From a virus (lineage: Duplodnaviria; Caudoviricetes), in the IMG/VR virus record IMGVR_UViG_3300034107_000631, positions 1 through 25,786 of that record: DNA of 25,786 nt; one strand, 5' to 3'. This document shows positions 1-9,186 of this stretch, piece after piece. Position 1 is the first letter of the stretch. Each line of letters opens with the position of its first letter. The position numbers and the translations under genes were made by a program. Below the pieces are notes generated by a model. The model saw only the letters and a list, made by a program, of their open reading frames with translations, was not told the origin of the DNA and searched no databases.

Positions 1-2091
1 AACACTAATTACACATTTAATGTGTCATTAAAAAATACCAATTCAAATTATATTGCAAATGTATTGGGTGTTGATAATTTTGGGAAAGATAGAAATGATG
101 TTCCAATATTTGTTGAAGAACACTATACAACACTATTAAATCAAGCATATAGACTTGGTTATATTAGAGGATTAAAACCAACTTTAACTTATTTGGGTGA
201 TGCAAGAACTGGGGGTTCATCTTCAATTGGTTGGTATCTTGAAAAATATCAATCACCAAAAACGCCATTTGTTGTTTCTGAATTGAGAGGAAATAAAGTT
301 TATAACTTATTCAAATTCATTTCAATATCTGATGGAAATTCAGCAAATACTGAAGTTAAGGTTTCAATTATTAATATGTCATTTAAGAATAGAACATTTG
401 ATGTATTGGTTAGAAGTTATTATGATTCAGATTCTGCACCAGTTGTATTGGAGAAATATACAAATTGTACACTAGATGAATCACAAAATAGTTTTATTGG
501 AAAAAAGATTGGAACAAGTGATGGCAAATATAATTTGGTTTCAAAATATATTATGCTTGAAATGGGAGATGAATTCCCATCTGATGCAATTCCTTGTGGA
601 TTTATGGGTTATCCCCACAGAAAGTATGGTAGTGCATTAACACCAAATTTATTATATAAAACAAGATATTATTATAATAATGAGGTTGTTAACAATGAAC
701 CATTTGCTGCATCAAATGCTGTACCTGCTGATAATGTAAAAAGAACATATCTTGGATTTTCAACAAATTATGGTTATGATAATTCTTTATTATCTTATAA
801 GGGTAAGCAAAATCCAGCAAGCATTATTGCAGATGGGTCAGAATGGAATGTGATTACAAAAGGTTTTCATATGGATTCAGGTGCAACAGTTGTTACTATA
901 GCAAATAGTTATACAACAAGTGGTCAAACAGCCTTTGAGGTTGGCAGTGGAAGTTTTAATTCAGAACCAGAAACAAATTCAAATCCATATTATTACTTAT
1001 ATTCAAGAAAGTTCACCTTATTATTTGAGGGGGGGTTTGATGGATGGGACATTTATTCTGAAAGAAGAACAAATGGTGATACATATCAAATTGGTGGTAT
1101 TGATTATATGAGGGGTGCATTATCTGTACCTGGCAAATATTCAGCAGCAACAGGACAAGGAACATTTAAACAAATTACAGATGGTGATGGTTCAGTTGAA
1201 TTTGCAACAACAGATTATTATGCATATCTTAAAGGTATTTTAACATATCAAAATCCAGAATCAACAAATATAAATATTTTTGTTACACCAGGTATTGATT
1301 ATATTAATAATAGCAACTTGGTTGAAAATGCTATAGATATGGTTGAAAGTGATAGAGCGGATTCAATTTATATTGTTACAACACCTGATGCAAATTTATT
1401 AACAACTGATGTCAATAATGTTATTTATCCCCAAGAATCAATTGTTTCTTTGGAGGAAACAAATATTGATTCAAATTATACTGCAACATATTACCCTTGG
1501 ATTTTGGTTAGAGACCAAGTAAATAATACCCAAGTTTATATTCCACCAACAGCAGAAGTCTGTAGGAATTTGGCATTAACTGATAATGTGGCATTCCCCT
1601 GGTTTGCATCAGCAGGTTATAATAGAGGATTGGTTAATTCTGTTAAGGCAAGGTTAAAGTTAACCCAAGATGATAGAGATACATTATATCAAGGAAGAAT
1701 AAATCCAATTGCTACATTCTCTGATGTTAATACTGTGATTTGGGGAAATAAAACCTTGCAAGTTAGAGAATCAGCATTAAATAGAATTAATGTTCGTAGG
1801 TTGTTATTGCAAGCACGTAAATTAATCTCTGCGGTTGCTGTGAGGCTTCTTTTTGAACAAAATGACCAGATAGTACGCCAACAGTTTTTGGATACGGTAA
1901 ATCCAATCCTAGATGGTATTAGAAGGGATCGTGGTTTAACTGATTTCCGTGTTACAGTTTCAAATGACCCAGAGGATATTGATAGAAATACAATGAGTGG
2001 TAAAATCTACATCAAGCCGACTCGCTCGCTAGAATTTATCTCACTCGAATTCGTGATTACACCTACTGGTGCTTCGTTTGAAGATATATAA
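1..2091 (+). CDS. Contractile tail sheath protein (T4 gp18-like), 5'-truncated
   Basis: The frame is open from base 1, so GTG at 22 is not the real start. C-terminal sheath motifs: ATYYPW, VYIPPT, PWFASAGYNRG, LYQGRINPI, VIWGNKTLQ, LNRINVRRLL, IYIKPTRSLEFISLEF. A tube gene lies downstream. Confidence 0.95.
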   Translation, partial: NTNYTFNVSLKNTNSNYIANVLGVDNFGKDRNDVPIFVEEHYTTLLNQAYRLGYIRGLKPTLTYLGDARTGGSSSIGWYLEKYQSPKTPFVVSELRGNKVYNLFKFISISDGNSANTEVKVSIINMSFKNRTFDVLVRSYYDSDSAPVVLEKYTNCTLDESQNSFIGKKIGTSDGKYNLVSKYIMLEMGDEFPSDAIPCGFMGYPHRKYGSALTPNLLYKTRYYYNNEVVNNEPFAASNAVPADNVKRTYLGFSTNYGYDNSLLSYKGKQNPASIIADGSEWNVITKGFHMDSGATVVTIANSYTTSGQTAFEVGSGSFNSEPETNSNPYYYLYSRKFTLLFEGGFDGWDIYSERRTNGDTYQIGGIDYMRGALSVPGKYSAATGQGTFKQITDGDGSVEFATTDYYAYLKGILTYQNPESTNINIFVTPGIDYINNSNLVENAIDMVESDRADSIYIVTTPDANLLTTDVNNVIYPQESIVSLEETNIDSNYTATYYPWILVRDQVNNTQVYIPPTAEVCRNLALTDNVAFPWFASAGYNRGLVNSVKARLKLTQDDRDTLYQGRINPIATFSDVNTVIWGNKTLQVRESALNRINVRRLLLQARKLISAVAVRLLFEQNDQIVRQQFLDTVNPILDGIRRDRGLTDFRVTVSNDPEDIDRNTMSGKIYIKPTRSLEFISLEFVITPTGASFEDI

Positions 2092-2108: not shown

Positions 2109-2145
2109 AAAAACCCCCACCTCAAAATAGAAGTGGGGGTTTTTT
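2109..2145 (+). terminator. Intrinsic terminator, probably bidirectional
   Basis: AAAAACCCCCAC...GTGGGGGTTTTT inverted repeat with an A-run on the left and a T-run on the right, just after the sheath stop codon. Confidence 0.85.
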
Positions 2146-2231
2146 ATTATTTGGGGTTTTTTTATATGATAGGGGCAATTAGTTTACTTTTATTATATCA
2201 AGTATTATTTTTTTATATAATATATAAATTA

Positions 2232-3131
2232 ATGAAAAAAAATACTTTACCAAAGAACAACCCCAATGTTGCAATGTATATTGCATTTGGATTATGGGGT
2301 TCATTTTTATTGGGTGTAATATATACCCCAAGCAAAATTAAATATGAAAAACAATCATTTACACCATTAATTCAACAAGAAACAGTTTTTATTGAAAAAG
2401 TAATTGAACCAATTAAAGTGAAAGTTGATACTGCTGAACCAATTAAAGTGAAAGTTGAAACTACTGAACCAATTATACCAGAAAATGATGCAATTGAAGG
2501 TGTAACAATAATTAATGAGGATGCTTATTCAAAAAGGTCATATGTTTATGATATTAGACATATGAGTAAAACTGAATTAAGAAAACATCTAAAAACTAAT
2601 GGATTTAGAAATTTGGATAATGCTACTTTAGTTCAGATGAGAAGAATGTGGATGGCATTTCATTATGAGAGTATGTTAATGAATTTACATCTATTGACAG
2701 AATTCCCCATATCTATGCTCTATTCATTCTTTATCATTGAGGCAACCACTAATGGCATTGAGACCAACTTATGGCGACTGCACGCAAATGCGGGGGGAAT
2801 GAAGGCATTTAAGGGGTACGGTTCTGTGACATATAAAACCTATGAAGTGATAAGGGGAAAAAATGTAACTATGAAAGCAAAATTTATGAGTGCAAAAAAT
2901 ACTCAAGAAGGAATTGAGGCTTGGGCTAAAGTATTAAATTCAGGTAGATATTATGAGTGCAAGAAAGCAAATTATAAATTACCAAAGAAACAATTATATG
3001 AAAGCATATGCAAGTGTGTTTATGAATCTGGTTATCATACAGACCCTAAGTATAAGTTTAGAGCACAATTTATGGCAGAGTTTTGGAAATTCAAAACAGA
3101 GAACCTTCCAATTATTATAGAGGAATTTTAA
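2232..3131 (+). CDS. GH73 (glucosaminidase/FlgJ-like) peptidoglycan hydrolase with N-terminal membrane anchor
   Basis: FFIIEATTNG (candidate catalytic Glu), NAGGMK (cf. NLFGIK) and GYHTDPKY (cf. GYATDPxY). Hydrophobic segment VAMYIAFGLWGSFLLGVIY follows basic MKK. The track start GTG 2133 lies inside the terminator; ATG 2232 is preferred, ATG 2166 is possible. Confidence 0.75.
   Translation: MKKNTLPKNNPNVAMYIAFGLWGSFLLGVIYTPSKIKYEKQSFTPLIQQETVFIEKVIEPIKVKVDTAEPIKVKVETTEPIIPENDAIEGVTIINEDAYSKRSYVYDIRHMSKTELRKHLKTNGFRNLDNATLVQMRRMWMAFHYESMLMNLHLLTEFPISMLYSFFIIEATTNGIETNLWRLHANAGGMKAFKGYGSVTYKTYEVIRGKNVTMKAKFMSAKNTQEGIEAWAKVLNSGRYYECKKANYKLPKKQLYESICKCVYESGYHTDPKYKFRAQFMAEFWKFKTENLPIIIEEF
2405..2475 (+). 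repeat. 30-bp in-frame tandem repeat, about 2.4 copies (EPIKVKVDTA/EPIKVKVETT/EPI)
   Basis: TGAACCAATTAAAGTGAAAGTTGA at 2405 and 2435; partial copy TGAACCAATTA at 2465. Confidence 0.95.
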
Positions 3132-3138
3132 ATTAACT

Positions 3139-3175
3139 TGGTTGCTCATTAAATTTGGGCAACCATTTTTTTTTT
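3139..3175 (+). terminator. Intrinsic terminator
   Basis: TGGTTGCTCA-loop-TGGGCAACCA (one U-G pair) followed by T10. Confidence 0.85.
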
Positions 3176-3186
3176 GGGTTTATAAA

Positions 3187-3194
3187 TATTTATA
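3187..3194 (+). promoter_or_regulatory. TATTTATA putative late-promoter motif
   Basis: Recurrent intergenic motif, 17 nt before ATG 3212. Here it is part of the palindrome TATAAATATTTATA (3181-3194). Confidence 0.55.
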
Positions 3195-3211
3195 AAATAA
3201 AATAAAATAAT

Positions 3212-4009
3212 ATGAAGATAATTAAAGAATTTAATGAAAAATCAACTCCAGATATGAAGTATTATGCTTTTGACTGGGATGACAATATTGTATATATGCC
3301 AACAGAAATAATATTACTTGATAATAATGATGATGAAGTTGGAATGTCAACACATGACTTTGCAAAATATAGAGGTGATGTTGGAAAAAATGAATTTAAA
3401 TATAGAGGGACTACAATTGTTGGTTATGCTGATTTACCATTTAGACAATTTACAGTTACAGGTGATGAACAATTCTTACGAGATATTATGATTGCAAAAG
3501 TTGGTCCAGCATTTGATGATTTCAAAGAAGCAGTTAATAATGGATCCATTTTCTCAATTATCACAGCAAGGGGACATAATCCTGAAACATTGAAAAAAGC
3601 AGTTAAAATATATATTGAAGAAGAATTTGATGGGATTATTAAAGATAAAGTTATACATAATCTTAATAAATATAGAGATTTAATCCCAAGTCAAACTGAT
3701 ATTGATATAATTGATGAATATTTGGATTTATGTAAATTCTATCCGGTTTCATTTGGTTCTGGTAGTGCTGCTAATCCAGAAGTAGAAAAAGTGAAAGCAT
3801 TAAAGGAATTTTATGATTATTGTAAAGAAATGGCTAATCAAATTAAAAAAGCATTTGAATTTAAAAATGAAGTTTCTGGTGAATCATTGAAATTCTCAAT
3901 TGGATTTTCTGATGATGATATGAAAAATATTGAAACAATGAAGAATAGTATGAATAAACCAGAATTAACAATATATTCAACAAATAAAGGTACTAAAGAA
4001 AAAGTATAA
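3212..4009 (+). CDS. HAD-superfamily phosphatase-like protein
   Basis: Motif I YAFDWDDNI (DxD), motif II SIITARG, a Lys in EVEKVKAL, motif IV GFSDDD. Confidence 0.7.
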   Translation: MKIIKEFNEKSTPDMKYYAFDWDDNIVYMPTEIILLDNNDDEVGMSTHDFAKYRGDVGKNEFKYRGTTIVGYADLPFRQFTVTGDEQFLRDIMIAKVGPAFDDFKEAVNNGSIFSIITARGHNPETLKKAVKIYIEEEFDGIIKDKVIHNLNKYRDLIPSQTDIDIIDEYLDLCKFYPVSFGSGSAANPEVEKVKALKEFYDYCKEMANQIKKAFEFKNEVSGESLKFSIGFSDDDMKNIETMKNSMNKPELTIYSTNKGTKEKV

Positions 4010-4111: not shown

Positions 4112-5722
4112 TTAAAAATTTAATTTGAATACAAAATTACCAACATCATAAATTCTTGGAATACCCCTTTCTTCCATAATTTGGAATTCTGTTTTGGTTG
4201 AATCAAAACCATTCTTAACCAAGATGTCTTTTCTAAATTCAAATCTATGTTTTCTTTTTTTATTAACAATATAAAAATAATTTGGGCTAGTTGATTTAAC
4301 TTCAACAAAGCCCAATTTTTTATATAAATTTCCATTACTCCATCTTTTATCAGCATAACTTAAAATTTCTGCTGGGTTATATGTTTGAATAAAATATTTT
4401 AATAATTTTGATGCACCCCCTACTACAGAAGTATTTAATTTATTGCAAAATCTAAGAAGTTCATATTCTTTATCATTTTTAATTTTATTACCCAGAGCAA
4501 TTCTCTTTTTTCCAAATGTCATTAAAGATACCAATTCATCATTATAATATAATCCAAGGTTAATGGAACTTCCAACCATACCTTGAATATGATTCTCATT
4601 AAGGAATTTTGATTTATCTTTTGTTTTAACCAATTTGATATTGCACTTCCTAGCATAAATCTTATGTTCAACTTTGTTTAATTTGTTTAACAATATGCTT
4701 TTAACAATTTCTTTTTTGCAATCCCATTCATCTTCAAATATATGAATTAACTGGATATTATTTGAATTGCAAATTTCTGTTTTCTCTAAATGATAATTAT
4801 TTTTTTTGAATACATTTGAATGAAAGTAAACCCCATTGAATTCAATGGCTAAGTTATGTTTGGGGATATAGATATCAATTTCTTTACCATTTAAAATATT
4901 TCTATCATTTTTAATATATTCAATATTATTATTATTCAAGAATTCACATAAATCATTTTCTTTAATTGATGAAAATTCACCTGCTGGATTACATAATGTA
5001 CAAGGATTTACTTTATTTTCATGCCTATAATATAATAAACTCCTATAAATTGAGTATTGCTTATTACAAATATCACATATTATTTCAATGTTGTTACCAA
5101 CAGAATTTACAATATTTAAATTATTATGTTTTTTTTCAAAATTAATTGATGATTTTTTAGTTTTTATATTTCTACTTTCCTTTAATAAGATTGGGGTGCT
5201 AACACCATATCTTTTAATATTTGTTTCTGCTATTTTTTGTTTTACTTTATCTAATTTTGAAATATGGTCAACTCCATATTTTTCAATTGTTCTTTGTTTA
5301 ATTAATTCTGTATCAAAGAATATATTTGTAACTCCATAATTTAACATTGTGGTGGCTTCTACTTTTGCCTTAATTTCTTTTGAAGAATTTGGGGAATTAC
5401 CACCATATTTCTCTGTATTTGTTATTTTAATTTTATTTATATGTTCAATATCAGAGTTTGTGCAAAGCAAAGAACAATAAAGTCCATAACCTTCAGTTAA
5501 GGATCTTTTAAACTTTAAATTTACCCCACATTTCTTGCAGGTTGGAATTTCTTTAACCTGATTAATGTAGTGCCATATTTTTTGTTTAAATGATATAGAT
5601 GTTAAATGTGTGGTGTAATTAATGATTTTTTCATATAAATCATTATGGTTGTTTTTAAGAAATGATTCTTTGGTCTTATAGCCAGATTTATTGTCAGTTG
5701 TAAAAAAAATTAATAAATCCAT
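4112..5722 (-). CDS. Free-standing homing-endonuclease-like protein: Zn-binding motifs, YG repeats, Vsr/DUF559-like PD-(D/E)xK-type nuclease and C-terminal GNAT (Mom-like) domain
   Basis: CKKC...YCSLLC; four xxYG repeats (EKYGG, LNYGV, EKYGV, KRYGV); CDIC...CTLC; EIDIYIPKHNLAIEFNGVYFHS...IHIFEDEW; then ELLRFC...VVGGASKLLKYF...ILSYADKRWSNGNLYKKLGF. It is the only long minus-strand gene in the window. Confidence 0.75.
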   Translation of the reverse strand: MDLLIFFTTDNKSGYKTKESFLKNNHNDLYEKIINYTTHLTSISFKQKIWHYINQVKEIPTCKKCGVNLKFKRSLTEGYGLYCSLLCTNSDIEHINKIKITNTEKYGGNSPNSSKEIKAKVEATTMLNYGVTNIFFDTELIKQRTIEKYGVDHISKLDKVKQKIAETNIKRYGVSTPILLKESRNIKTKKSSINFEKKHNNLNIVNSVGNNIEIICDICNKQYSIYRSLLYYRHENKVNPCTLCNPAGEFSSIKENDLCEFLNNNNIEYIKNDRNILNGKEIDIYIPKHNLAIEFNGVYFHSNVFKKNNYHLEKTEICNSNNIQLIHIFEDEWDCKKEIVKSILLNKLNKVEHKIYARKCNIKLVKTKDKSKFLNENHIQGMVGSSINLGLYYNDELVSLMTFGKKRIALGNKIKNDKEYELLRFCNKLNTSVVGGASKLLKYFIQTYNPAEILSYADKRWSNGNLYKKLGFVEVKSTSPNYFYIVNKKRKHRFEFRKDILVKNGFDSTKTEFQIMEERGIPRIYDVGNFVFKLNF

Positions 5723-5819: not shown

Positions 5820-6308
5820 ATGGCTGATTTATTAATTAAAATGCCTTTTCCTTATGAACCAAAAAGACAAAATAGGTTTATACTAAGGTTTCCAGCTCCT
5901 ATGGGGATAAATGAATGGTTTGTTGAAAGTACATCAAGACCTAAAATATCAATAGCATCAAAAGAAATTGAATTTTTAAATACATCAACATTTGTTTCTG
6001 GTAGATTTAAATGGGAACCAATCACTATTAAATTCAGAGACCCAATTGGTCCATCTGCTGCTCAAGCATTAATGGAGTGGGTTAGATTGCATGCAGAATC
6101 AATTACAGGTAGAATGGGGTATGCTTCTGGCTATAAGCAGAATTTAGCATTAGAATTACTTGACCCAACTGGTGTTGTGATTGAAAAATGGGAATTAATT
6201 GGTTGTATTATAACAAATGCTGATTTTGGTGCTTTAGCATATAATTCAGATTCATTAGCTGATATTAGTGTTACAATTCAACCTGATAGATGTATATTAG
6301 TATATTAA
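5820..6308 (+). CDS. Tail tube protein (T4 gp19-like)
   Basis: 162 aa with EPKRQNRF, RPKI, GRFKWEPITIKFRD, LMEW, GYKQNLALELLDPTGVVIEKWELIGC, FGALAY and VTIQPD; lies downstream of the sheath. Confidence 0.92.
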   Translation: MADLLIKMPFPYEPKRQNRFILRFPAPMGINEWFVESTSRPKISIASKEIEFLNTSTFVSGRFKWEPITIKFRDPIGPSAAQALMEWVRLHAESITGRMGYASGYKQNLALELLDPTGVVIEKWELIGCIITNADFGALAYNSDSLADISVTIQPDRCILVY

Positions 6309-6332: not shown

Positions 6333-6376
6333 AAAGTTCATATGTTTATGGTAATCATAGATATATGAACTTTTTA
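6333..6376 (+). terminator. Intrinsic terminator with long stem
   Basis: AAAGTTCATATGTTTATG-GTAAT-CATAGATATATGAACTTT: 18-bp stem with two G-U pairs, then a T-rich tail. Confidence 0.75.
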
Positions 6377-6440: not shown

Positions 6441-7190
6441 ATGGAAGATAAGTCTAAAGAATATGGTCAATCAAGTTTTGACCTACCCCATGATGTGATA
6501 CAATTACCATCTGGGGGCATATTTTACAAAAACAAAAAGAAAGCAATTAAAATTGGTTATTTAACTGCTAGTGATGAGAATTTACTATTAGGTAATAGTA
6601 AGAATTTTACTTTGCAACTTTTAAGAAATAAGATATATGAACATGATATAAGACCAGAAGATATGATTGAAGGGGATATTGAAGCGGTTCTAATATTTTT
6701 AAGAAATACTTCTTTTGGTTCTGAACTTGAACTTTCAGTACCGGATTCTAAGACTGGTAAGTTTTTTAATGCTGTTATTGATTTGAGTGAATTATCAATT
6801 GAAAAGGGTGATACACCTGATAGTGATGGTACATATACTATTACATTACCTAAAAGTTCTGATGTGGTTAAAATTAAACCATTAACCTATGGGGAGATTC
6901 TTGAAATAAATGATATTATTGATTCTTATCCAACTAATAGAATTGCACCAAAAGTAACATTAAGATTATCAAGGGAGATTGTTGAAATAAATGGTAATCC
7001 AGATAAGGTAAGCATTGTTAAATATGTTGAGACTATGCCTATTGCTGATTCAAAATTTATACGCAAGTATTTGAGTGAGAATGAGCCTAAACTTAATTTA
7101 AAAAGAAATATAAAGACCCCATCAGGAGATATGACCACAGTTAGCGCTGGGTTTGGGGTTGAGTTTTTTCGCCCTTTCTTCGGATTATAG
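6441..7190 (+). CDS. Tail/baseplate-hub assembly chaperone (T4 gp26-like)
   Basis: LPSGGIFY, YLTASDENLL, GDIEAVLIFLRNTSFG, ITLPKS, KPLTYGE, MPIADSKFIRKY and a C-terminal EFFRP; sits between tube and tape measure. Confidence 0.75.
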   Translation: MEDKSKEYGQSSFDLPHDVIQLPSGGIFYKNKKKAIKIGYLTASDENLLLGNSKNFTLQLLRNKIYEHDIRPEDMIEGDIEAVLIFLRNTSFGSELELSVPDSKTGKFFNAVIDLSELSIEKGDTPDSDGTYTITLPKSSDVVKIKPLTYGEILEINDIIDSYPTNRIAPKVTLRLSREIVEINGNPDKVSIVKYVETMPIADSKFIRKYLSENEPKLNLKRNIKTPSGDMTTVSAGFGVEFFRPFFGL

Positions 7191-7332
7191 GGTTGCACAA
7201 TCAACAGATTTTTATTATTTAAATAAATTATTAAATGTTTCATATTCTGATTTTTTAATTATGCCCATTTTTTTAAGAAAATTCTTAATAAATAAATGGA
7301 TTGAAGATAACAATAATAATAATAAGGGGTGA
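7171..7332 (+). CDS. Unannotated +1-frame extension of the chaperone (probable programmed frameshift product)
   Basis: Frame open 7135-7332 encoding ALSSDYRVAQSTDFYYLNKLLNVSYSDFLIMPIFLRKFLINKWIEDNNNNNKG*. No ATG before 7261; overlaps the TTT_TTT_CGC site; ends within the terminator hairpin. Confidence 0.65.
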   Translation, partial: ALSSDYRVAQSTDFYYLNKLLNVSYSDFLIMPIFLRKFLINKWIEDNNNNNKG

Positions 7333-7353
7333 TGTTAAAAATCATCCCTTATT
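7321..7353 (+). terminator. Terminator-like hairpin
   Basis: AATAAGGGGTGAT-loop-ATCATCCCTTATT, 13 bp with one G-U pair. Confidence 0.7.
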
Positions 7354-7354
7354 C

Positions 7355-7362
7355 TATTTATA
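7355..7362 (+). promoter_or_regulatory. TATTTATA putative late-promoter motif
   Basis: 15 nt before ATG 7378. Confidence 0.55.
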
Positions 7363-7377
7363 TATAAAATATATATT

Positions 7378-9186
7378 ATGGCAAATGTGGGAGATACTGA
7401 TAATATTATAAGTAAGATTTTTGAAAAAATAGACAAAGTTCAAGCTGGTCTTTTTGGTTCAGAACTTGGTACTTTTTTAAAAGACCAAATAAAAGAAATG
7501 ACAAATTTCACAGGGGCATTAATTGCTTTGGATAAAGAGTCGGCTGATTTAAGTAAGAATTTTCTTCTTGGTAGAACTAGAATAAATGAGTTTAAGGGTA
7601 TTATTGCTGATACTGCACCTATTGTTCGTGAATTGGGTGGTGATATTGGTGATATTAATGCAATGATTAAAGACACAGGTGAAGCACTTGGTAGAAATGT
7701 ATTATTTACCCCTGAAGTTTATGGTAAAATATTTGCAATAAATGATTTGTTGGGTACACAGACTAGTACTCTTGCAAGAAATTTTTCAAATGCTGGTATA
7801 TCTATTGCTAAAGTTGGAGGTGACATTGAAGCCTCACTAAATTATATTAAGAGTATTGGTATGGATGCTAAATCCATAATGAACCAAGTAGTTAATAATA
7901 CTGACCAATTAAATAGATTTAATTTTAAAGAAGGTGTTTTAGGTTTTTCAAAAATGGCTGCAACAGCAACTTTGCTTAAAACAGATATGAGTACCATTCA
8001 ATCATTAGCAGATAAAGTTTTTAATGTTGAGGGTGCTATTGATACAGCTGCTGCTTTTCAGAGGCTTGGTGTTTTTATGGGTGATTTGGCTGATCCATTC
8101 TCATTAATGAATAGTTCATTAAATAATCCAGAAGGTCTGATTAAGAGTATAGCAAAGGCTGGAGAAAGGTTTACTGAATTCAATGCTGAAACAGGTAGAG
8201 TTGAAATAAATCCATCTGCTATGGGTATGTTTAATGAACTTGCTGCTGCATCTGGTATTGGTGCAGATAAACTTAAACAAATGGCAATTTCATTAAGAGA
8301 ATTTAACGAAAGAGCTTCACAAATAAATTTTAAATTTGATTTAAGTGAGGAACAACAAATGCTTATTGCTAATTTGGCATTTTTAGATGAAAAGGGTGAA
8401 TATGTTGTTAATATTAAAGACCAGAAAACTGGTGAAATGATTGCTCAAAAAGTTTCAGATTTAACAGAAGAACAAATTTCAAAACTAAAAGAACTATCAG
8501 ATGAGAAACCAAAAACAATGGAAGAAATTGCAAAAGAATCAATGAGTATTACTGATATTATAAAAAATGATGTTCAAGCAATAAAATATAAAATATTATT
8601 TGGTGTTGCTGGCACGCCAGCATTATTGAAGGCACAAGAGTCTGTAAGAGGTGAAATTGGAATGGGTTATGATTATCTACGTGAATTGATTCCAGACATG
8701 AAAGATACCAGAAAATTTTTAACTAATATAGGTACTGACATAATTAATAGTTATAAAAATTCTGGAAATTTTGAAGGCAATTTAGAAAAAATATTAAGTA
8801 ACTTTCCAAATTTTGGTGATGTGCTTACTCAAATGAATAAGGCTGGTGAAAAAAGTGGATTTAATGATAGTTTAACAAAGGATATGTTAGATAAATTATC
8901 AAGTGCAACTGGAATTAGTGGAAATGATTTTAAAAATTTAATAAAACCTTATTTTAATGTTGGTGGTCCAGAGTATATAGGAACAGAAATTATAAAAAAT
9001 ACTACAACAAATATAAATAATTCAAAAGATAATAAAGTTAATTTTAATTTAACAATTGATGTAATTCATAAATCAATGGATTCAACAGGGGCAATAAAAT
9101 CAATGAATCAAGTTGAAAGAATCAATCAATCATTTAAAGATAATGCGTTTGGTAAAAAACTTACTATAAATATTCCAAATAAGTAA
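7378..9186 (+). CDS. Probable tape measure protein
   Basis: 602 aa, Ala/Gly/Met-rich and helical in character (e.g. ELAAASGIGADKLKQMA); canonical position after tube and chaperone. Confidence 0.7.
   Translation: MANVGDTDNIISKIFEKIDKVQAGLFGSELGTFLKDQIKEMTNFTGALIALDKESADLSKNFLLGRTRINEFKGIIADTAPIVRELGGDIGDINAMIKDTGEALGRNVLFTPEVYGKIFAINDLLGTQTSTLARNFSNAGISIAKVGGDIEASLNYIKSIGMDAKSIMNQVVNNTDQLNRFNFKEGVLGFSKMAATATLLKTDMSTIQSLADKVFNVEGAIDTAAAFQRLGVFMGDLADPFSLMNSSLNNPEGLIKSIAKAGERFTEFNAETGRVEINPSAMGMFNELAAASGIGADKLKQMAISLREFNERASQINFKFDLSEEQQMLIANLAFLDEKGEYVVNIKDQKTGEMIAQKVSDLTEEQISKLKELSDEKPKTMEEIAKESMSITDIIKNDVQAIKYKILFGVAGTPALLKAQESVRGEIGMGYDYLRELIPDMKDTRKFLTNIGTDIINSYKNSGNFEGNLEKILSNFPNFGDVLTQMNKAGEKSGFNDSLTKDMLDKLSSATGISGNDFKNLIKPYFNVGGPEYIGTEIIKNTTTNINNSKDNKVNFNLTIDVIHKSMDSTGAIKSMNQVERINQSFKDNAFGKKLTINIPNK

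Follow-up and report, generated by a model that had tools for sequence, protein, structure and literature searches.

The question raised by this locus is whether the gene at its centre ends at its TAG codon or is also read, by a programmed frameshift, into a second frame that stays open beyond it. The gene content of the window (the whole 25,786-nucleotide stretch of viral DNA analysed here) is that of the tail region of a large myophage, with sheath, tube, a 249-aa gene, a 602-aa gene and baseplate genes (Table 1). The product of the 249-aa gene, called G below, matches the T4 gp26 'baseplate hub' family (PF12322, phrog_150), and its gene is placed between the tube gene, identified by PHROG, and the gene in the position of the tape measure, as is the case for G/GT chaperones. 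The 602-aa gene product had no PHROG match and no relevant Pfam match; judged by its place alone, it is probably the tape measure protein, and LIS04, HSE3, SP-15 and BCD7 carry a tape measure annotation on the gene in the matching position.

An AlphaFold2 model of G had a mean pLDDT of 83. In a Foldseek search with this model, the HK97 tail assembly chaperone 2OB9 was found at rank 2 (probability 0.91, E 0.21) as the sole high-probability match, with a weak score. In the VIA comparison the model and 2OB9 gave Z 5.2 (rmsd 4.0, 87 aligned); 3FGX (Z 6.0) and 3KLU (Z 5.6) scored higher, and all values were below Z 8. A PDB sequence search returned a chance match only. The gene at 6441-7190 is likely a tail-assembly chaperone gene.

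The first-pass annotation had proposed that a short and a long chaperone are made here through a UUU_CGN-type +1 slip, and its description of the junction was confirmed. The 3' end of the gene (7161-7190) reads GAG TTT TTT CGC CCT TTC TTC GGA TTA TAG, the +1 frame is open over 7135-7332 with its first ATG at 7261, a terminator-like hairpin covers the TGA of that frame (7330), and none was called at the TAG. If TTTC is read as one step, the product is 296 aa against 249 aa, with the junction ...VEFFALSSDYR. The CGC codon is as rare as claimed (5 of 7632 codons), and in-frame TTT CG occurs a single time among the 15 plus-strand genes of the window, at the G junction. The TAG, which had also been pointed out, is indeed the unique such stop among the window's 16 genes, but the relatives described below vary in their G stops (TGA in 96, TAA in 22 and TAG in 21 of 139), so the TAG is incidental.

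Some further features of the window were noted. A free-standing homing endonuclease gene lies on the minus strand at 4112-5722, just ahead of the tube gene (phrog_3339, E 2e-134), and the protein of 2133-3131 joins a hydrophobic N-terminus to a C-terminal domain that resembles endolysins (PHROG E 5e-8). No tRNA was found in a search of the window. Terminator-like hairpins (6333-6373 and 7321-7353) are present on either side of the G/T gene, which may therefore be under separate control from its tube and tape measure neighbours. An (AAT)n run at 7309-7323, giving poly-Asn at the T end, differs in length among close relatives. Near-identical DNA is present in lake and river metagenomes, and the RNA reads of one run cover 6447-6813 only, short of the junction.

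Table 1. Features of the window around the G/T junction
Feature	Position	Strand	Match or remark
Sheath	1-2091		
Tail tube gene	5820..6308	+	upstream of G; phrog_4542, E 5e-29
Terminator-like hairpin between tube gene and G	6333..6373	+	consensus scan only
G, gp26-like, likely tail/hub assembly chaperone, 249 aa	6441..7190	+	PF12322, E 1.5e-6; phrog_150, E 7e-11
Conserved 5' RNA stem-loop	7115..7160	+	CCCC 7117-7120 : GGGG 7155-7158, plus inner helix
Asymmetric 9-nt bulge UCAGGAGAU with invariant GGA	7122..7130	+	within the stem-loop
Predicted shift site TTT TTT CGC	7164..7172	+	P-site UUU 7167-7169, UUC 7168-7170, A-site CGC
Predicted T extension, +1 frame, 54 residues in the fusion	7168..7332	+	frame open from 7135
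Intrinsic-terminator-like hairpin over the T stop codon	7321..7353	+	consensus scan only
Probable tape measure protein, 602 aa	7378..9186	+	position only

The junction in close relatives

Protein clusters matching G numbered 3978. For the comparison of junctions we used 49 loci from a protein search; an alignment without the C-terminus then added the best 80 of 584 loci from viruses and the best 80 of 412 from metagenomes. Including the window, 210 loci were considered; 11 were left out as truncated, and the remainder represented 139 distinct junctions, 52-96% identical, 118 of which came from scans whose patterns left out the C-terminus.

The shift codon was TTT in all 139 junctions (background 74%) and the next codon was always CGC, CGT or CGG, while CGN makes up 11% of the Arg codons elsewhere in the gene. 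The codon before the shift codon was TTT in 126 junctions and TTC in 13. In every junction T was found in the +1 frame, which remained open for 42-49 codons beyond the G stop, and the relative frame of the two parts thus did not vary at random, as the first-pass annotation had warned it might. The 0 and -1 frames closed early and irregularly, the -1 frame 1-30 codons after the stop, and the canonical -1 tandem-slip layout (X XXY YYZ) is absent. The entropy of the T region per +1-frame codon position was 0.86/0.70/1.35, highest at third positions, and the synonymous sites near the shift site were frozen. Since all 139 junctions share TTT CGN and the open +1 frame, the layout is beyond chance. 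A TAG in the +1 frame, two codons ahead of the site in 12 of the 139, confines the shift to the motif or to a point 3' of it. From this conservation a frameshift here is very likely, and the conservation of motif and frame supports the predicted short and long forms.

Two known types of recoding were considered and set aside. A shifty-stop model was ruled out, as the stop codon and its distance vary; a prfB-type +1 shift was rejected as well, the A-site codon being CGN, the stop following 5 or 7 codons later and the GGGG ending 8 nt before the P-site codon. A region search for in-frame G-T fusions in the close family scored two candidates, none of which passed, and the two proteins returned by a search for longer forms were no fusions, but T regions whose calls stem from upstream starts or chimeric contigs.

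The stem-loop upstream of the predicted shift site

The frozen synonymous sites extended up to 50 nt upstream, with GCC at 60 of 61 Ala codons (background 8%); of 99 non-redundant sequences, all 99 had GGA and 97 had GGG. These sites defined a stem-loop composed of the CCCC:GGGG pairing, a 9-nt bulge and an inner helix, a conserved feature which the first-pass annotation had overlooked. Its base ends 6 nt ahead of the slip codon, and in the window the register of the inner helix is shifted relative to the family consensus. The predicted folding energy was -17 kcal/mol (z -2.55). In 54 sequences, 81.8% of the cells paired and 10 of 17 pairs changed on both sides; none of 500 shuffles reached the score of the stem-loop, and slid controls paired in 35-55%.

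Because the structure had been derived from the same sequences, independent controls were added, namely a tree from the upstream protein and synonymous recoding. On the tree, 44 double compensatory changes were counted, in comparison to 5-12 with slid partners, and pair breaks were frequent too (121). The natural sequences folded 2.44 SD better than their synonymous recodings (mean z -2.44, as against -0.25 for a control window), and pairing was 84.3%, compared to the 74.5% already reached by the recoded controls. A search with Rfam covariance models gave no match at E<=1 in 7000-7400. The covariation and folding indicate that the hairpin is a real, conserved structure. The Gly codon of the bulge was GGA in all 139 junctions (background 30%). 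The bulge is SD-like and also complementary to 7175-7184 (+8..+17), a possible pseudoknot, with 90% pairing and no covariation (291 of 500 shuffles), which makes this pairing uninformative.

On the sequence data we consider the chances about even that the hairpin stimulates the shift. The shift may be real and the hairpin may instead serve as a protein-binding or RNase site or as an insulator, or its GGGG may act as an internal SD, as proposed for msi172; this alternative is quite possible, and we hold it somewhat below an even chance. It would accommodate the invariant and unexplained GGA of the bulge, as well as the pairing of GGGGUUGAG with an anti-SD sequence at -7.6 kcal/mol and the G-rich upstream tract described in passages on msi172 (PMC4755241). 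The hairpin is moreover limited to the clade of the window: nine distant phages with the +1 layout lack it (z +0.24 to -1.14), and the Mel-JY01 clade shows it only weakly (mean z -0.97). The layout can thus exist without it. However, the CCCC that faces the GGGG is equally frozen, as the GCC codons indicate, compensatory changes are present, and the base of the stem keeps a constant distance from the slip codon, which would fit a stimulator better.

Distant relatives and the direction of the predicted shift

The distant set comprised 25 loci of annotated collections, with about 22-45% identity or reached via such loci. T was in the +1 frame in nine, in the -1 frame in 15, and behind a coupled ATG in one, LR756511, the junction of which shows a TAATG-coupled start. 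The +1 sites read TTC TTT CGT in GXN1 and HSE3, CTG TTT CGC in BRock and GiJojo, TTT CAG in LuckySocke, TTT TTT CAC in SP-15, TTT CTA in LR756508 and TTT TGG in Mel-JY01. The ninth, TTT TTT AGT (positions 2188-2196 of its locus), belongs to the Listeria phage LIS04, a relative of SP-15, and is the exception to the rule of a pyrimidine after TTT. A second, large clade around Mel-JY01 was represented by 80 loci, of which 4 were dropped; every one of its 64 distinct junctions showed TTT followed by a pyrimidine, and T in +1. In the site of this clade, TTT TTT TGG CCT, Trp replaces Arg in the A site, and a strong 5' hairpin is lacking. At the BCD7 junction T lies in -1, behind the site G GGG GAG.

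Nine of the 15 loci with T in -1 are T4-like phages (S-PM2, Syn1, P-SSM2, S-SM1, S-N03, DLP6, AS-zj, Ps15 and ValKK3). In all nine, the end of gp26 is the canonical -1 heptamer T TTT TTC, and gp51 is open in -1 across the stop; gp51 has its own ATG in eight, and in AS-zj it has none and is unannotated. A -1 G/GT shift at gp26/gp51 of the T4-like phages is thus likely, as far as the heptamer and the frame indicate. In T4 itself (genes 26 and 51, 2303-3729 of its locus), gp26 covers positions 14-235 of phrog_150, the G part only, and gp51 covers 13-280, G and T in one frame; G and GT of T4 may therefore be paralogues.

The T region of the window had no PHROG or Pfam match. It matched the T regions of the distant phages at 96-97% in profile comparison, and with read-through the match to phrog_150 ended at position 253 instead of 233 (+3 bits). 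The direct profile match of the T family to gp51 was 0.6%, inside the shuffled range, and the transitive match via distant T regions was 96.9% and 94.4%. In hhalign, T against S-PM2 gp51 was not significant, nor was G against T4 gp26 and gp51.

The variant sites bear on the direction of the shift. Both the TTC-TTT-CG junctions (13 of the 139) and the CTG-TTT-C sites of three Streptomyces phages permit re-pairing in +1 and not in -2; since the -2 codon would be UCU in the TTC variants, re-pairing of UUU to UUC in +1 is the sole reading open to all 139. A Mu-like -2 slip on UUUUUU, with the junction EFFFALSSDYR, would find the six U in 126 of the 139 junctions, so that a single-tRNA slip of this kind is possible in most, and in 59 of 64 junctions of the Mel-JY01 clade. 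Such a shift is known in Mu (passages of PMC5009743), and the UUUUUUA of LIS04 is a site where +1 re-pairing fails and a -2 shift is possible. For the family at large we nevertheless regard a -2 slip as unlikely, because of the UCU codon mentioned above, because the U6 run is missing in HSE3, GXN1, BRock, GiJojo, LuckySocke and LR756508, and because a pyrimidine follows UUU at all loci except LIS04, in keeping with a +1 rule. On these sites the +1 direction is favoured. The predicted tryptic junction peptide for +1 is TPSGDMTTVSAGFGVEFFALSSDYR; a -2 slip would add one Phe.

T could also be made as a small protein of its own, with TTG 7153 as its start codon, the bulged AGGAG as an SD brought near by the inner helix and the outer stem throttling initiation. 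The equivalent TTG is usable in 107 of the 139 junctions, the GGA is invariant, the AGGAG stands 2-3 nt ahead of the inner helix that ends at TTG 7153, and gp51 often has its own ATG in T4-like phages. An own start nonetheless appears distinctly unlikely: the TTG is missing or severed by a stop in 32 of the 139, the equivalent of TTG 7159 is usable in only 36, no upstream start whatever is found in 16, and no start codon is common to all relatives. ATG 7261 is codon 31 of 54 and lies inside a conserved MP motif (124 of 139), so a start there would lose the conserved first half of T. An own start would moreover leave unexplained that TTT is fixed at the second Phe yet free at the first; the conservation of the +1 peptide starts exactly at TTC, and the genes of the window have A-rich leaders and no SD.

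That the two frames are joined by transcriptional slippage along the T run or by a faulty assembly is exceedingly improbable, for although the window has a T6 run, the run is just three T in several relatives, the same layout recurs in 139 junctions, and an independent contig of another study (depth 144, spanning 6691-7500) reads through the site with no indel, so that the indel error which the first-pass annotation had named as a refutation is absent.

Proposed mechanism and comparison with known systems

Taking these points together, the interpretation of the first-pass annotation is supported, and it is probable that the gene encodes a likely chaperone made as a 249-aa G and a minor 296-aa G-T, the latter through a UUU_CGC +1 slip with the 5' stem-loop as the likely stimulator. 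During such a slip, peptidyl-tRNA-Phe would be held on the P-site UUU (7167-7169) as the ribosome waits at the rare Arg codon CGN. Just unwound, the stem would form again where the mRNA leaves the ribosome, 6 nt behind the P site, biasing the ribosome forward; tRNA-Phe would then re-pair from UUU to UUC (7168-7170), and the new frame, beginning ALSSDYR..., would be read until the TGA at 7330. On the model of lambda, coating of the tape measure would fall to G and recruitment of the tube protein to T.

Passages of published work describe the separate elements of this mechanism. UUU_Y is reported as +1-prone in bacteria (in part of PMC5009743), and msi172-171 shows a +1 slip from UUU to UUC at UUUC with 4-13% efficiency (in part of PMC4755241). 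A refolding 5' hairpin stimulates +1 shifting by 70S ribosomes in vitro (passages of PMC6321510) and in yeast (passages of PMC3639245); according to the passages seen in both papers, stimulation on 70S ribosomes occurs only without RF2 and falls with spacing, and by analogy the 6-nt spacing of the window is at the weak end of the range.

One relative was found among bacterial genomes, on a 248-kb contig of a Flavobacteriaceae MAG with the gene, the motif and the hairpin. The contig may serve as a weak hint of the host, and it may also be mis-binned. As Bacteroidia ribosomes are described as largely ignoring the SD, even at prfB (abstract of PMC10798248), a hairpin could, speculatively, be a sensible substitute. 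A more far-reaching view, which we put forward tentatively and with more doubt than belief, is that a refolding 5' hairpin drives a natural bacterial +1 shift, replacing the SD:anti-SD duplex in an SD-ignoring host (probably of the Bacteroidia), that the GGA bulge is a sensor tuning the G:GT ratio, and that the family reaches this ratio by a +1 slip, by a -1 slip (T4-like gp26/gp51) or by duplication (T4).

The locus would represent a compact +1 recoding cassette of about 70 nt, and its conservation extends over a large family of freshwater giant phages. In cultured HSE3, BRock, SP-15 and GXN1, the 'baseplate hub gp26' and the small hypothetical gene would be re-read as a single G/GT chaperone gene. 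Our search of the main texts of freely accessible papers returned no account of this shift in bacterial gp26-like genes or of a 5' hairpin at a tail chaperone shift, and the family of this chaperone is not described in the passages seen of PMC10885494, PMC3711429, PMC3004832, PMC8211752 and bioRxiv 2026.01.04.697583.

The closest precedent is that of the HF1 haloviruses, whose tail chaperone gene has been proposed to carry a TTT-CGC +1 site (Dyall-Smith et al. 2020, passages of PMC7230728), the only paper returned that joins TTT-CG to the tape measure. These are also myoviruses, in which two ORFs separate the tube gene from the tape measure gene and the predicted +1 fusion would arise close to the first stop, at TTT-CGC. 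Unlike the present family, they have an archaeal host and comprise six genomes, their passages mention no RNA structure, and the likeness is one of motif and layout. The opinion of the first-pass annotation that UUU_CGN is atypical for phage tail genes therefore needs qualification, and the new part, relative to those passages, is the covarying 5' stem-loop at the shift site.

The core motif is identical to the UUU_CGN +1 motif of influenza PA-X and the amalgaviruses (passages of PMC5009743), which, however, works on eukaryotic ribosomes, and the E-site UCC is not conserved in the family of the window. The msi172-msi171 (FseA) pair of ICEMlSym shares the bacterial tRNA-Phe slip and the upstream G-rich tract, but it is a regulator on a conjugative element, and its G tract is described in part of PMC4755241 as a sequence signal, whereas the tract here is paired in a covarying stem. 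With the refolding hairpins (parts of PMC3639245 and PMC6321510) the window has in common a hairpin placed immediately 5' of the E site, which would mimic an SD:anti-SD duplex. Those published cases are, as far as these parts go, engineered constructs at CUU_UGA or at a yeast site; the window is a candidate for a natural case, at a sense codon.

Among tail chaperones, G/GT shifts are known in the -1, -2 and +1 directions, 'except T4' (passages of PMC5009743). With lambda gpG/gpGT, as described there, the gene shares its position, a predicted pair of short and C-terminally extended forms and perhaps, on weak structural matches, a chaperone-like fold; lambda, however, shifts by -1 on a tandem heptamer, whereas the window has a predicted single-tRNA +1 slip, a 5' stem-loop and a G of 249 aa. 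The hub assembly chaperones gp26 and gp51 of T4 (passages of PMC3004832) belong to the same PHROG family, with gp26 corresponding to G and gp51 to G+T, but in T4 they are two divergent genes with no shift, and their direct profile comparison with the family of the window was not significant. The G/GT re-reading proposed here would bear on the claim that T4 is without a tail chaperone frameshift, and if the tentative view of one ratio reached by slip or by duplication is true, this long-noted exception would be removed.
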